From NCBI GenBank assembly GCA_038231435.1, contig JBBRLJ010000013.1, forward strand, positions 53,480-117,479: 64,000 bases of DNA, read 5' to 3'. The notes under the pieces are model-generated. The model was not told the DNA's origin, did no database searches, and saw only the letters and a list, made by a program, of their open reading frames with translations. Shown here one piece after another: positions 58,025 to 63,853 of this stretch. Position 1 is the stretch's first letter, and every line of letters starts with the position of its first letter. The DNA is from Planctomycetota bacterium (lineage in GTDB: Bacteria; Planctomycetota; UBA11346). The position numbers and the translations under genes are program-made.

Positions 58025-59079
58025 GTCTTCGCTCCGCCGGTGGGCGCGCCCGCCGAGGCCGGGCGGCGCATCCTAGCGCGCACCTCGCGCGCCGGCAGCA
58101 AGCCCTCGGGCTTGAAGCGCATGGCCAGGATCAGCGCCAGGCCGAAGACCATGAACTTCCAATTGTTGGGCGAGGCGAGCACGCTGCCGCTGGAAGCCTG
58201 GTTGCCGAGCGCGTCGCTCAGGCGCACCAGCACGATGCTGTTGAAGCCGAACATCAGCAGCGAGCCGAGCAGCACGCCCGGGATGCTGCCCATGCCGCCG
58301 ACGATCACCGCGCACAGCACCATGATCGACATCTGGAAGTCATAGTATCCAGGCTCGACGCTGGTGCCGACCAGGGCGGCGTTGAGGGCGCCGCCCGCCG
58401 CGCACAGCGCGGCGCCCCAGCTGAACGCCGACAGCTTGGCGCGCGCGGCGTTGACGCCCGAGGCGCGCGCCGCCAACTCATCCTCGCGCACCGCCACCCA
58501 GGCGCGTCCGACGCGCGAACGGCGCAGGTTGCGGCACAGCGCGACAGCAGCGATCGCGAAGGCGAGGTACAGGTAATAGAAGGGGAGATTGCGCTCGGTG
58601 GTGAACGCCAGGCCGGGCAGCACCGGATGCGGCACCGGATTGATACCGGTGGTGCCCTTGGTGATCGGCTCGAGATTTTTGAGCAGATCCTGGACGATCT
58701 CGCCGAAGCCGAGGGTGACGATGGCGAGGTAATCTCCGCGCAGGCGCATGGTCGGCAGGCCCAGCAGCGCGCCGACCGCGGCCCCGATCGCGGTCGATGC
58801 GCCCAGGCCCCACCAGAATCCGAGACGGAACGGATAGATGTCGCAGGTGAGGATGCTGTAGGCGTAGGCGCCGATCGCCACGAATGCGGCGGCGCCGAGA
58901 TTCAGGAGGCCGGTGAAACCAGTGACGATGTTCAGGCCCAGGCCGATGACGGTGAAGGCGAAGATGGTCGGCATCAGCTGCGAGATCCGCCAGCCCTGCG
59001 GTGCCAGCAGTTCGAGTCCGGGCATGACCACCGCGAAGGCGATCAGCGCCGCCGCGAATGCCCAGCGGTAGCGGCTCAT
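58021..59079 (-). CDS. livM: Branched-chain amino acid ABC permease
   Basis: GLNIVTGFTGLLNLG, RLRGDYLAIVTLGFGEI, GRAW.AVREDE.AA, GGMGSI.G. Confidence 0.94.
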   Translation of the reverse strand: MSRYRWAFAAALIAFAVVMPGLELLAPQGWRISQLMPTIFAFTVIGLGLNIVTGFTGLLNLGAAAFVAIGAYAYSILTCDIYPFRLGFWWGLGASTAIGAAVGALLGLPTMRLRGDYLAIVTLGFGEIVQDLLKNLEPITKGTTGINPVPHPVLPGLAFTTERNLPFYYLYLAFAIAAVALCRNLRRSRVGRAWVAVREDELAARASGVNAARAKLSAFSWGAALCAAGGALNAALVGTSVEPGYYDFQMSIMVLCAVIVGGMGSIPGVLLGSLLMFGFNSIVLVRLSDALGNQASSGSVLASPNNWKFMVFGLALILAMRFKPEGLLPAREVRARMRRPASAGAPTGGAKT

Positions 59080-60020
59080 ACCTTCTCCCGCACGTGCGCG
59101 CCGAGGATGCCCGACGGCCGGAACACCAGCACCAGGATCAGCACCGCGAACACCAGCACGTTGGTCCACTGCGTGGCGATCAGGCCGTCCGACGCCGCTC
59201 GCACCACGCCGATCACCAGCCCGCCGAGCACTGCCCCGGGGAGGTTACCGATGCCGCCCAGGACCGCAGCGGTGAAGGCGTCCATGCCGATGCGGTAGCC
59301 CATCTGGAAGCTGATGGTGTTGTTGTACAGCGAGTACACCACCGCAGCGACGCCCGCGAGCGCGCCGCCGATGATGAAGGTGGCGCCGATGACGCGGTCG
59401 ACGTCGATGCCCATGAGGCGGGCCGCGGTGGGATTCTGCGCGGTGGCGCGCATCGCCGTTCCCAGGCGCGTGCCGCGCACGAATGCCGACAGCGCCAGCA
59501 TCAGCGGCACCGTCACCACCGCGACCAGCACGTCCTTCAGGGTGAGCAGCACCGGACAGCCCTGCCAGAGCAGGTTGGTGGTCGAGACCAGATCGGGGAC
59601 GCTCTTCGGCGCCGACGCGGCCTTGCCGCCGTCGAACACCGCCATTGGCGCGCCGCCCCAGAACAGCCCGATATTCACGAAGATGAACGACACGCCGATC
59701 GCCGACACCAGGGCGGTGAGCTTCGGCGCCTCGCGGATCGGCCGGTAGGCGAGCCGATCGACCGACCAGTTGATCGCCGCGCAGAACACCGGGGTGACCA
59801 CCAGCAGCACGGCCAGGCCGATGAGCGGATGGTGCTCGAGCCCGCACGCGCCGACGATGGTGAGCGAGAAGAACGCTCCGAGCATGACCAGGTCGCCGTG
59901 GGCGAAATTGATCAGCTCGATGATGCCGTAGACCATGGTGTAGCCGAGCGCCACCAGAGCGATGATCAGGCCGTTGGTCAGGCCGATGATCAGCAGCTGG
60001 AGGAGGGTCGGCCAATCCAT
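59076..60020 (-). CDS. livH: Branched-chain amino acid ABC permease
   Basis: ALGYTMVYGIIELINFAHG, G.AMRA.AQN..AA.LMGI, FTAAVLGGIG, RPSGILG. Confidence 0.95.
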   Translation of the reverse strand: MDWPTLLQLLIIGLTNGLIIALVALGYTMVYGIIELINFAHGDLVMLGAFFSLTIVGACGLEHHPLIGLAVLLVVTPVFCAAINWSVDRLAYRPIREAPKLTALVSAIGVSFIFVNIGLFWGGAPMAVFDGGKAASAPKSVPDLVSTTNLLWQGCPVLLTLKDVLVAVVTVPLMLALSAFVRGTRLGTAMRATAQNPTAARLMGIDVDRVIGATFIIGGALAGVAAVVYSLYNNTISFQMGYRIGMDAFTAAVLGGIGNLPGAVLGGLVIGVVRAASDGLIATQWTNVLVFAVLILVLVFRPSGILGAHVREKV

Positions 60021-60122
60021 CGCGGGTAGGTTGCGGGGGGAATCGGGGAATTCCAGGGTGGCGGTGGGGGAGCGGGGTGTTGACTGGTTGGACAGGTTGG
60101 GGGATGCGTCGATCACGCAGGG

Positions 60123-60358
60123 GAGGGCTCGAAGGTGAGAAGGCTGGAAAGCTCGAAGGCTCGAAGGCTCGAGAGACGGCAGATGGTTGCGGGCCATGAC
60201 GACGTTGTTTGGGCATTCTAGCCTTCTCACCTTCTCACCTTCTCACCTTCTCACCTTCTTGCCTTCTTGCCTTCTCCACTGCTTGTCGGATGTCGGTGGA
60301 ACAGAGGCAGGTGAAGGCTCGAAGGCAAGAAGGCTCGAAAGCTCGAAGGCTCGAGGGC
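60123..60358. repeat. Three blocks of 8-mer GAAGGNNN tandem repeats in alternating orientation
   Basis: 60123-60175 GAAGGCTC-type; 60218-60277 (TCACCTTC)4(TTGCCTTC)2; 60313-60358 GAAGGCTC/GAAGGCAA. Confidence 0.9.
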
Positions 60359-60406
60359 AGCCGACGGCACGTGTGTTGTGGGCGTTCTCCCCGGCGGCGC
60401 GATTGT

Positions 60407-60488
60407 CGCGATCGTCCTCGGCGTCAAGGCCAGGCCGCGGTGGCCGCGGTGGCCGGAGCGGCCAGCCTTGACCCCGAGGACGATCGCG
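60407..60488 (+). promoter_or_regulatory. Conserved structured leader (three-way junction on a long stem), copy 1
   Basis: CGCGATCGTCCTCGG pairs with CCGAGGACGATCGCG. It encloses GTCAAGGC-CAGG-CCGCGG-TGG-CCGCGG-TGGCCG-GAG-CGGCCA-GCCTTGAC. Function unknown. Confidence 0.65.
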
Positions 60489-60512
60489 CAGTGGGGCGCA
60501 AGGAGAACGGAC

Positions 60513-60866
60513 ATGGAGAGATTCGAAGATTTGAGCGTGTGGCAGCGGGCGGCGGGGTTGGCGGAGAAGATTCGGGAAGAGCGGGGACTGCAGCGCAGCG
60601 GCGATGGATTGCGCGGACAGATCCGTCGGGCGGCGGCTTCGATCGCCTACAACATCGCCGAAGGGCACGGACGCGCGAGCGAGGGCGACTTCCAGCGCTT
60701 CCTGGCGATTGCAGGTGGCTCGTGCGCTGAAGTGCAGGCGCAGCTGCGCATGGCATCGCGAAACGGTTTCATCGCGCGTGAGCGTTTCGTCACGATGCTC
60801 AACGAAGCGATCGCGATTGGATTCATGATCCGCAATCTGCGGCGGCGGCTACGGCCGCCGCCGTGA
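60513..60866 (+). CDS. Four helix bundle protein (23S rRNA IVP / bAvd-like family)
   Basis: FEDLSVWQRA, QIRRAAASIAYNIAEG.GR, F.RFLAIA.GS.AEV.AQL. AAGGAG RBS. Confidence 0.92.
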   Translation: MERFEDLSVWQRAAGLAEKIREERGLQRSGDGLRGQIRRAAASIAYNIAEGHGRASEGDFQRFLAIAGGSCAEVQAQLRMASRNGFIARERFVTMLNEAIAIGFMIRNLRRRLRPPP

Positions 60867-60870
60867 GACG

Positions 60871-61215
60871 TCACGTATTGACGACGTATCGGCGCAGGGC
60901 GCTGAGCATCCAGCCGATCTGTTGGGCGGTATCGATGAGAACGATGAACGAGTCGCGATCGAGATGGCCGCAGGCGTGAGCTCGGCGCAGCTGGCTCTGG
61001 GCTTCGGCGCACGATCCATTGGCGATCGCCAGGAAGTGCGCGAACTGTGGCGCGCTGCCGCGCTCGGATCCTTCGGCGATGTTGTCAGGGATTGATGCTG
61101 CCGAGCGCCGCAACTGCGACGCCGCTTCATGACGCATCCGCACCGCGGCCTTCTCGACCGCCACCGCGAGATCCTGCGCCTTTTGCCACACGATGAGCTT
61201 TTCGAACTGAGCCAT
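60871..61215 (-). CDS. Four helix bundle protein (23S rRNA IVP / bAvd-like family)
   Basis: FEKLIVWQKA, QLRRSAASIPDNIAEG.ER, FAHFLAIANGS.AE..SQL. AAGGAG RBS. Confidence 0.92.
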   Translation of the reverse strand: MAQFEKLIVWQKAQDLAVAVEKAAVRMRHEAASQLRRSAASIPDNIAEGSERGSAPQFAHFLAIANGSCAEAQSQLRRAHACGHLDRDSFIVLIDTAQQIGWMLSALRRYVVNT

Positions 61216-61241
61216 GGTTGTGCTCTCCTTCGCACCCACCC

Positions 61242-61326
61242 AGCGGACGCGCGCAGCTGTCAAGGCTGGCCGCTTCGGCCACCGCGGTTCTTCCGCGGCA
61301 TGGCCTTGACAGCGAGCACGTCCGCT
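61242..61326 (-). promoter_or_regulatory. Conserved structured leader, copy 2
   Basis: On the minus strand AGCGGACGTGC..GCT pairs with AGC..GCGCGTCCGCT. It encloses GTCAAGGC-CATG-CCGCGG-AAGAA-CCGCGG-TGGCCG-AAG-CGGCCA-GCCTTGAC. Confidence 0.65.
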
Positions 61327-61427
61327 ACGATCGCGATTCCGAGGAGAGCCCGACACGAACCGTGCCTCTATCTCTTCCCTCTTCCCAACTTTCTACTTCT
61401 TCACCTACAAGTCGTCCGTCCGTCCGC

Positions 61428-62624
61428 TTATTCCCCCAACAACTTCACAAACTCGAAATCTCCGCCCTTCACCACATTCCCGCTGACCATCTTCTGGCTG
61501 GTATCCCCATTGGCGTCGAACGACCACTTCCCGAGCGCTCCATCGAAGTCCTTGGTCGCGGCCACCGCCGCGCAGATCGCGGCGCGATCCTTCTTGCCGG
61601 CGCGGGCGATGGCGTCGAGCACCACCTTGGCCGATTCGTAGCCGTACACCGCGTAGACCTCCGGATCGGAGCCGTACGTGGCCTTGTAGGCGTCGACGAA
61701 GGATTTGCCCTTGCCGGTGAGCTGGCTGGGCGGCGCGCCGCCGAACGTGACGTAGCAGCGTCCATCGACGTTCTGCGCGCCGGCGGCGGCGATGAAGGCC
61801 TTCTCGTAGCAACCGTCGGGCACCATCATCTTGCAGTCGAGTCCGCCCGAGATCATGTCCTTGGCGACCTGTCCGGCATTGTTCTGGGTGGTGCCCCCGA
61901 AATACACCAGATCGGGCTGGCCCTGCTTCATCTTGGTCACCAGCGAGCGGTAGTTCGACGCCTTGCCGTCGATGCCCTCGACGCCGAGGATCTGGATGCC
62001 GAGCTTCTCGGCGTTCTTGCGGAAGCTCTCGGCGATGCCTTTGCCGTAGACCTCGCGGTCATTGAGCACGAAGGCCTTCTTCACGCCCATCTCCTTCGCC
62101 CACTTGGCGGCGGCTTCGCCCTGGATGTCGTCAGCGGGCACGATGCGGAAGTAGGTGACCTTGCCGCTCGGGCGGTAGACGTCGGGTTCGTTCTTCTCGC
62201 CCTGGCCCGGCTTGGTCAGGCCGGTGGCGGTGTTGGCGGGGCTGACCATCACCAGGCCGGCCTGGTTGAGCTTGGGCATGGCGATCTTCGCCGCGCCGGA
62301 ATTGTAGGTGCCGATGTAGGCCATCACGTCCGGATCGCGGATCGCCTTGTCGGCGTTCGCGCCCTCGACCGCGGGATCCCACTGGCCCTTCTCGGGCGAG
62401 GCGTCGTCCCAGTCCTGATAGACGATCGTGAACTCGCCTGCCTTGGCTCCGGCTTCCTTGACCGCCATCTTGATGCCGTTGACGATGGTCGTGGTCTGCG
62501 CATTGGCGCTGCCGGTGCGCGGCAGGCTGGAGACGATGGTGATGGTCTCGGCTGCTCCGACCGTGGGGCTCAAGGCGACGAGGACGGCCGAGGTGGAGAT
62601 GATGGCGGCGAGGAGTGGGCGCAT
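61428..62624 (-). CDS. livK: Branched-chain amino acid ABC substrate-binding protein
   Basis: Signal peptide, P.TG, IG.YNSG, SPANT..GLT, FR..P.DD.QG, YGKG, YA.YGY. Confidence 0.92.
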   Translation of the reverse strand: MRPLLAAIISTSAVLVALSPTVGAAETITIVSSLPRTGSANAQTTTIVNGIKMAVKEAGAKAGEFTIVYQDWDDASPEKGQWDPAVEGANADKAIRDPDVMAYIGTYNSGAAKIAMPKLNQAGLVMVSPANTATGLTKPGQGEKNEPDVYRPSGKVTYFRIVPADDIQGEAAAKWAKEMGVKKAFVLNDREVYGKGIAESFRKNAEKLGIQILGVEGIDGKASNYRSLVTKMKQGQPDLVYFGGTTQNNAGQVAKDMISGGLDCKMMVPDGCYEKAFIAAAGAQNVDGRCYVTFGGAPPSQLTGKGKSFVDAYKATYGSDPEVYAVYGYESAKVVLDAIARAGKKDRAAICAAVAATKDFDGALGKWSFDANGDTSQKMVSGNVVKGGDFEFVKLLGE

Positions 62625-63765: not shown

Positions 63766-63853
63766 CAGGGGCTCCGCTGTTTAGTCAGGGGCTTCGCCCC
63801 TACGGCCTAGCGGCCCCCCCCCCGGGCTTTGTCGGGTCTCGATTTCTCCGCTG
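63766..63853. repeat. Repeat family B, second copy
   Basis: CAGGGGCTCCGCTGTTTAGTCAGGGGCTTCGCCCCTACGGCC...GGGCTTTGTCG...CTCGATTTCTCCGCTG matches the reverse complement of 26934-27020. Confidence 0.85.

Follow-up and report, generated by a model that had tools for sequence, protein, structure and literature searches.

A fold-back leader of convergent PF05635 genes in a planctomycete chromosome, a probable single-stranded-DNA promoter

Two small genes of the PF05635 (IVP) family lie tail to tail between livK and livH in a planctomycete chromosome, and each of them is led by a fold-back element. This element-plus-gene unit is repeated in the genome, is absent from orthologous sites in relatives, is under purifying selection, and shares its core with plasmid establishment leaders. 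From sequence comparison, we consider it probable that the element represents a new family of single-stranded-DNA (ssDNA) promoters, recruited by a transposase-less chromosomal cassette whose gene pair would be expressible from either strand.

Single-strand promoters are known from the leading regions of a few enterobacterial plasmids. To our knowledge, PF05635 is a very common family with no known function outside diversity-generating retroelements (DGRs). Our literature searches, with most subscription papers outside their scope, returned no description of the element or of the cassette.

Results

A convergent gene pair in the liv operon

Positions are those of the window, the whole stretch of 64,000 nucleotides that was analysed. 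Gene A (60513-60866, plus strand, 117 aa) and gene B (60871-61215, minus strand, 114 aa) end tail to tail with 4 bp between their stops. They sit between two minus-strand host genes of an amino-acid transporter operon, identified by NCBIfam/Pfam, livK upstream of the insert (61428-62624) and livH downstream of it (59076-60020). Both proteins passed the PF05635 and TIGR02436 cut-offs; their family HMM scores were 94 and 98 bits against a cut-off of 33.8, and 90 and 91 bits against 24. The two proteins are 46% identical. The product of gene A is basic (pI about 11), and that of gene B is a sequence relative of XCC0516, matching its structure PDB 2GSC (E 1e-11). From the likeness to 2GSC, we infer that both would adopt its four-helix-bundle fold and form pentamers.

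The insert does not lie within an rRNA gene, since its flanks are livK and livH and an Rfam search gave no rRNA match. A scan for standard promoters with 16-18 nt spacers and for terminators found none; an 11-bp GC hairpin without a T-tract occupies the last codons of gene A at the gene-gene junction (60839-60864). Three 8-nt tandem arrays, of GAAGGCTC type, CCTTCTCA type and again GAAGGCTC type, form the left edge of the insert (60125-60358), and adjacent arrays are mutually inverted. Degenerate 7-8-nt repeats with GGAAGAG-type and GGAC sequences run from the livK stop to the leader of gene B (61372-61426, minus strand).

Element A (60383-60509, plus strand; from folding, 71 bits with the covariance model) carries a branched head (60423-60472), pairs a TTCTCC tract with the RBS region through its basal helix, and includes the gene A ribosome-binding site (RBS) AAGGAG (60500-60505, plus strand). 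On its gene-distal arm, sequence and logo predict a -35 box, TTGACG (60422-60427, minus strand). The predicted -10 box, GACAAT, lies 14 nt from it (60402-60407, minus strand) and is unpaired in the fold from A(-11) on. Element B (61222-61349, minus strand; folding, 88 bits) includes the RBS AAGGAG of gene B (61225-61230, minus strand). Its distal arm carries a predicted -35 box, TTGACA (61306-61311, plus strand), and 14 nt away a predicted -10 box, TACGAT, in a mismatch bubble (61326-61331, plus strand). From the box spacing, transcription of gene B is predicted to start at or just before this RBS.

The gene pair, its 4-bp junction, its livK-livH position and a branched core shared by the two leaders had been described in a first-pass annotation of the sequence, and sequence and family HMMs bore this out. 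The promoter boxes of the distal arm, the flanking 8-nt arrays and 23 further copies in the genome had gone unmentioned there.

Fold and covariation of the element

Both strands of elements A and B folded with z-scores of -7.7 to -9.3, and none of 200 shuffles was as stable. The first-pass annotation had described a core of about 50 nt just ahead of the RBS, about 25 nt before the ATG. The element in fact spans about 130 nt, with the RBS itself paired in its basal helix, and the end of the core is separated from the RBS by about 27 nt and from the ATG by about 40 nt. A TTCTCC or CTCTCC tract pairing with the RBS region is followed by a stem of 22 pairs and then by a variable head. Both copies have the GTCAAGGC/GCCTTGAC stem, which closes the CCGCGG and TGGCCG-RAG-CGGCCA hairpins, as annotated (29-nt arm 97% complementary), and the outer stems do differ in sequence and pair in both. 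The annotated three-way junction stands as a branched core in the two copies, but not as the conserved part: what is conserved is the stem with the promoter-like boxes, and the heads vary from one to three hairpins.

The stem covaries, which the first-pass annotation had named as support for its proposal. We found 149 cells with two-sided changes against 49 ± 5 in shuffles, an excess that is inflated by the relatedness of the sequences, and such changes occurred in 11 of the 22 main-helix pairs. Altogether 92% of stem cells were paired, and slid stem registers were just 33-47% paired. The absence of an Rfam family, likewise named there, was seen at gathering level for the region and for 15 related loci. 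The element pattern had 0 matches in viral contigs.

Fold energy does not separate the two strands (35 of 66 leaders). In 45 of 46 sequences, one pair of the stem reads U-G on the sense strand, which makes an A-C mismatch on the template strand, and A(-11) stands opposite G in 71% of leaders (n=66), a wobble in RNA; these two features suit an RNA fold. C(GNA)G mini-loops showed a strand preference in relatives. In IVP leaders outside this genome, 33 of 48 heads had them on the template strand and 4 on the sense strand, and in leaders of other genes the numbers were 45 of 49 and 1. This genome's own heads had no strand bias (1 versus 2 of 14). The C(GNA)G motif is an unusually stable DNA hairpin, according to the accessible part of PMC13037366.

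Promoter-like boxes on the distal arm

We collected 49 leaders through the protein rather than the pattern; nine leaders without the anchor were cut by contig ends (7), masked (1) or without element (1). The truncated leader G004_L048 was removed and identical arms were collapsed before logos were made. Read on the template strand, the distal arm has the form TTGACN-14 nt-(T/G)AnnnT. A(-11) was present in 48 of 49 leaders and so was T(-7), while neighbouring positions were variable. Position -12 was G in 29 of the 49 and T in 19, and host promoter-like sites showed no peak for G there. A(-11) and T(-7) are the bases that sigma70 flips out. Over 66 leaders, Watson-Crick pairing was found for A(-11) in 2% and for T(-7) in 6%, and the five positions before A(-11) were paired in 82-94% (shuffles 34-61%).

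Between the boxes lie 14 nt when counted along the distal arm and 15 along the template arm; the template bulge is gone from the type-A copies here, that of gene A included (8 of 66 leaders have offset 0). The partner arm, which faces the gene, retains TTGAC and has no -10 at 15-19 nt. Among the 93 metagenome arms from the matches listed, nAnnnT stood at 14 nt (10) or 15 nt (44) on the distal side, and at 13 or 14 nt (18) and never at 15-19 nt on the proximal side. A second family has three additional base pairs after TTGAC, which shift the internal motif by 3 bp, yet TAnnnT is still 15 nt from the -35 box in all 3 copies. An alphaproteobacterial subclass is without T(-7) and has no consistent downstream gene.

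TTGACN-TAnnnT sites of the host peaked at a spacing of 15 (22 sites); spacings of 16-18 had 15-17 sites apiece and the remaining ones about 5, so short box spacing is normal in this host. The short-spacing sites include ones before tRNA-like sequences with the same -10 hexamers as the elements. At 14 nt, the genome has 7 non-element sites over a background of about 5. Housekeeping-type promoters of this genome appear to have TTGACN and a spacer of 15-18 nt with mode 15, shorter than the 17 of E. coli.

A repeated cassette without a linked mobilising enzyme

The genome contains 17 PF05635 genes, and the element precedes all 16 that have an assembled 5' end. A profile search gave 9 more copies beyond these gene-linked 16: two opposite a deleted partner gene, four in two fused gene-less doublets, one truncated and two cut by contig ends. 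Element and gene are a unit, as the first-pass annotation had proposed, and the unit recurs in this genome and in relatives; the additional copies that it had named as support number 23 here.

Six convergent pairs account for 12 of the 17 genes, and the A-with-B pairing was seen three times. All 6 sites with close IVP pairs in this genome had the genes convergent, as did 8 sites elsewhere, beside a single divergent case and a small number of tandem fragments. Identity of gene A with four other type-A genes is 81-87%, and four type-B genes share 72-81% with gene B. A local inverted duplication was rejected as the origin of the pair: identity is 72-87% to same-type copies elsewhere and 46% between partners, so the pair was copied as a unit. 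In 20 comparisons between copies, dN/dS was 0.08-0.38 and dS 0.4-1.0, which indicates that the copies are old and their proteins constrained by purifying selection.

Many cassettes (11 genes) lie directly after the stop of a co-oriented host gene. Of 16 element loci, 15 had a 6-9-nt array within 400 nt, compared with 8% for random windows, yet just 19 of the 296 array clusters were close to an element. Genome-wide, there are 159 clusters of 7-8-nt tandem arrays, mostly without an IVP gene and often beginning at a stop codon. These clusters are possibly scars or landing sites.

A side observation concerns base composition. For about 350 nt, the strand that leads into each cassette end is rich in G and poor in C. 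In the window this C-depletion halo covers 61428-61550 (the livK 3' end) and 60020-60120, and the last 40 or so codons of livK are depleted of C at third positions. In 11 host genes next to cassettes, C made up 0.11 of third positions over the final 20 codons, versus 0.44 genome-wide. Compared with empty-site orthologues, C sites had changed at 15 of 18 and 19 of 21 positions, mostly to G, and G sites at 0 of 11 and 1 of 8. The halo is present in most relatives and is weaker at gene-less 7-8-nt arrays (26% vs 5%). Our best guess is strand-specific damage of exposed ssDNA.

No mobilising enzyme for the cassette was found in this genome, which is 88% complete. It gave no match to the reverse transcriptase family PF00078, no ArdC gene and no full-length Y1 transposase, only one unlinked partial Y1 match of 25 bits over 56 positions. 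The cassettes examined had no target-site duplication, long inverted flank or sharp boundary. ComEC and DprA are present. A complete integron (intI, an AT-rich cassette and attC) lies at L405:6061-7990, 2.5 kb from a solo IVP cassette, and its attC shares a CGTGCTCGG/CCCTGCGC internal-loop motif with the element stem. That the element itself is an attC was rejected, R boxes being found in 0 of 19 elements; a genome-wide attC scan gave 0 matches, though it also missed the integron's real attC. The unit likely spreads without a transposase of its own.

Empty sites and distribution among relatives

Here livK and livH are about 1.4 kb apart; in four relatives the spacer is short and insert-free (62 nt in one), the kind of empty site that the first-pass annotation had proposed to look for. 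Four insertion sites were compared in relatives, with two-sided synteny confirmed for liv and mutS only and three orthologous loci having less than 500 nt of flank; the element was found in 0 of 18 orthologous loci and the gene in 0 of 14 checked. Contigs from four DNA sequencing runs yielded no usable empty-site joint. A different, REP-like repeat of the GGGGCTTCGCCCC...CTTTGTCG type follows the FKBP gene in the window (63775-63850), and repeats of this type also occur in the relatives' empty livK-livH and mutS spacers (L001, L413, L025).

PF05635 copies ranged from 0 to 52 per genome in 31 genomes. A covariance model trained on 46 IVP leaders matched 8 of the 31: this genome, five relatives with 10-19 IVP genes, and two others, of which one had a copy away from any IVP gene and the other a weak hit. 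This weak hit was the only one among the 15 IVP-less genomes. In a sample of the phylum, the model matched 4 of 151 genomes; in the loci opened, an IVP gene came next in 15 of 17, and the remaining two were cut by contig ends. Many IVP genes in the phylum have repeat arrays only and no element, and in a quick protein tree the element-bearing proteins clustered (2 changes versus 16 shuffled).

Several other arrangements were observed. One genome (G026, L071-L090) contains 52 matches to PF05635, many of which have stops; they lie in near-identical repeats whose left edge is sharp and follows TAAC, and the element is missing. This is a separate and apparently recent expansion of an IVP cassette. 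Two convergent pairs enclose intervening DNA, about 300 nt with an AT-rich ORF-like stretch in one and about 2 kb in the other (L369, L012), which suggests that the doublet can carry cargo. At L149 and L150, one IVP gene has two tandem copies of the element ahead of it, and a single copy precedes an unrelated membrane-protein-like ORF.

The same core precedes plasmid genes

The exact stem pattern was found in at least 132 stretches in genomes and at least 125 in metagenomes. Among the genome matches listed, 48 of 128 distinct ones precede an IVP gene; the 41 other downstream ORFs included 9 DUF932, 5 ArdC, 4 RadC and 2 antirestriction genes, and 19 without a Pfam match. Among the metagenome matches listed, an IVP gene was downstream in 7 of 123, and 51 ORFs from the 80 long-flank loci among these matches were scanned. 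For the 15-nt subclass, all 30 ORFs among the matches listed were DUF932 (13), ArdC (7), RadC (4), antirestriction (4), ParB (1) or methylase (1) genes; 16 ORFs of the alphaproteobacterial-type subclass, again among the matches listed, had no common family.

One core copy matches 139 plasmids, 123 of them typed conjugative. In three of four such plasmids that were opened, the core lies directly before radC, among ardC, kleA, DUF932 or ssb; the fourth has no annotated gene at the core. A model made from IVP leaders only scored three plasmid radC leaders at 41-47 bits. In leaders of plasmid leading regions, the RBS falls outside the basal helix, and tandem same-strand copies precede successive leading-region genes. 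The accessible parts of PMC11541004, PMC9849209 and PMC12672017 place DUF932/ArdC/antirestriction/RadC-type families in leading regions under single-strand promoters. The copies in our genome are chromosomal and stand between housekeeping genes; a leading-region location, in putative leading regions, was seen only for the plasmid relatives of the core.

In the alphaproteobacterial-type subclass, gene-less doublets of about 300 nt were observed (L231, L243, L275, L278; Roseiarcus, Bradyrhizobium). They consist of the element, a central palindrome and a second inward-facing fold-back with TTGACG, and this doublet looks like a dispersed non-coding repeat.

Discussion

We propose that the element would act when the template strand is single. 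The two arms would then pair, with the distal arm supplying -35 and -10, A(-11) and T(-7) pre-melted in the fold and the RBS helix as downstream duplex, and RNA polymerase would start at the RBS and read into the gene. In double-stranded DNA (dsDNA), the boxes would be directed away from the gene, their 14-nt spacing falling slightly short of the host's usual 15-18, and the gene-facing arm, lacking a -10, would leave the gene off. A convergent pair would offer one expressible gene per single strand. On a more speculative level, expression may take place when the cassette arrives as ssDNA by uptake or conjugal transfer, and the Avd-like protein may help the insert to be retained.

Several lines of evidence are consistent with this ssDNA promoter. 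The core stands before plasmid DUF932, ArdC, antirestriction, RadC, ParB and MTase genes, A(-11) and T(-7) are conserved and unpaired, the second family keeps TAnnnT at a fixed 15 nt, and host spacing peaks at 15. Template-strand GNA loops in relatives, the layout of ssp2 of the F plasmid, the convergent pairs and the presence of ComEC and DprA also fit. On the other side, the 14-nt spacer is below the host dsDNA range and shorter than in the validated ssDNA promoters compared, type-A copies have lost the bulge, and G(-12) is found in 29 of 49 leaders. The sense-strand U-G pair, A(-11) facing G, equal strand energies, the lack of GNA bias in the own genome and the lack of a sequence match to an F promoter also count against it, as do the alphaproteobacterial subclass without T(-7), the failure to find a mobilising enzyme, a target duplication or a sharp end, and the non-independence of related sequences.

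Some of these points would be met by a cis-acting RNA leader, in which the basal helix hides the Shine-Dalgarno sequence and the gene stays untranslated in host read-through transcripts, possibly with the protein bound. A perfect duplex of at least 6 bp is kept in the RBS region of 60 of 66 leaders with many different sequences, the U-G pair is invariant on the sense strand, the cassettes of 11 genes lie right after a co-oriented host stop, and Avd works with RNA according to the accessible part of 10.1101/344556. We nevertheless regard the RNA leader as unlikely. It leaves unexplained why the antisense arm has TTGAC and, at a fixed distance, the A and T, why GNA loops lie on the template strand, and why the same core stands before unrelated leading-region genes whose RBS falls outside the basal helix. 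The presence of that core before unrelated plasmid genes, and in other phyla, also leaves unsupported the earlier suggestion of an RNA motif bound by the four-helix-bundle protein. Shine-Dalgarno occlusion may be a real secondary effect, and blocking of translation is plausible too, given the RBS-region duplex.

The first-pass annotation had also raised the recognition end of a small mobile cassette; we found no evidence for a recombinase recognition end. In a fuller form of this idea, the element would be the end of a non-autonomous mobile element, folded as ssDNA for an HUH transposase or integron integrase acting in trans, and the pair would be two inverted ends. Doublets of inverted elements with two, one or no genes between them, gene-less doublets in Alphaproteobacteria, the patchy copy number (0-52) and an integron integrase whose attC has the same internal-loop motif all speak for such an end. 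We think it quite improbable, as attC R boxes (RYYYAAC...GTTRRRY) are in 0 of 19 elements, the Y1 enzyme is a 25-bit fragment of 56 positions, target duplications and sharp boundaries were absent, solo copies have one element, and tandem same-strand copies precede successive leading-region genes. Finally, the opposite strand does read TTGACA-N14-TACGAT, and the genome has 7 sites outside the elements with the same 14-nt spacing; the boxes could be an ordinary outward dsDNA promoter for antisense RNA or read-out into host genes, with the hairpin incidental or a terminator. The 7 sites are near the background of about 5, however, and such a promoter explains neither pairing that is kept up to exactly -12 and lost at -11 nor a partner arm with TTGAC and never a -10 at 15-19 nt. 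We give it very little credence.

For the ssDNA promoter, we see about even chances that convergence serves to make either strand usable; the stability of inverted copies could likewise promote convergence. Spread through DNA uptake and recombination at repeat arrays is a tentative suggestion. From the likeness to XCC0516 and bAvd, the proteins may have a role in nucleic-acid handling. A wider scenario, which we find rather doubtful, is that a selfish cassette took over the "zygotic induction" of plasmids, transcription from ssDNA only. With its genes facing inwards, whichever strand a competent cell takes up would yield one Avd-like pentamer and could prime the second strand of the cassette. 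The protein would secure insertion at repeat arrays between host genes, leaving the halo of C loss, and PF05635 would be an establishment factor for incoming DNA.

The elements form a compact family that occurs in several phyla, is not in Rfam, and links plasmid leading regions to PF05635. If the ssDNA promoter is real, PF05635 proteins would be made only on ssDNA, which would explain their silence in ordinary growth, and the convergent pairs would be explained. A direct assay would be available, and a chromosome would be shown to use a single-strand promoter.

Folded single-strand DNA with GNA mini-loops in dispersed intergenic copies is familiar from attC cassettes, REP/RAYT and IS200/IS605. 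The element resembles them in all these respects, but it has promoter boxes and is without R boxes and without a linked transposase. Among relatives of the proteins, S23p is the protein of 23S rRNA intervening sequences (PMC4990558), bAvd of DGRs is a positively charged pentamer (10.1101/344556), and XCC0516 forms five four-helix bundles by a title cited in PMC10053308, as far as the accessible parts of these sources go. Within the literature searched, accessible in part, no promoter-like fold-back leader is reported for XCC0516, S23p or bAvd. Like S23p genes as portrayed there, ours ride on an apparently selfish insert, but the cassette lies outside rRNA; unlike DGR avd, no reverse transcriptase was found in the genome (88% complete).

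The closest likeness of layout is to the ssDNA promoters of conjugative plasmids, which the accessible parts of PMC9849209, PMC12672017, PMC11541004 and bioRxiv 10.64898/2026.01.09.698686 divide into Frpo/ssi (class 1), ssp2 before klcA/ardA (class 2) and an MTase promoter (class 3). By sequence, the element is not in classes 1-3 (Frpo, ssp2, ssp3), and model R1 had no match at E<=1 in F plasmid 50000-67500. F ssp2, a validated single-strand promoter whose class has mapped start sites by the available text of PMC12672017, carries TTGCAT-15 nt-TAAGAT on its distal arm, a mismatch at -10 and a branched head; its spacer of 15 compares with 14 here. As far as those papers are accessible, our element has in common with Frpo/ssp a long fold-back immediately ahead of the RBS, the placing of -35 and -10 on the arm away from the gene, a branched head, a short spacer on the distal arm with additional bases on the template arm, and the -10 mismatch, and relatives of the same core precede the same gene families. 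By the same accessible text it is shorter, about 130 nt against 300-400, and unlike Frpo/ssp it is chromosomal, multi-copy and placed before PF05635 genes, often in inward-facing pairs.
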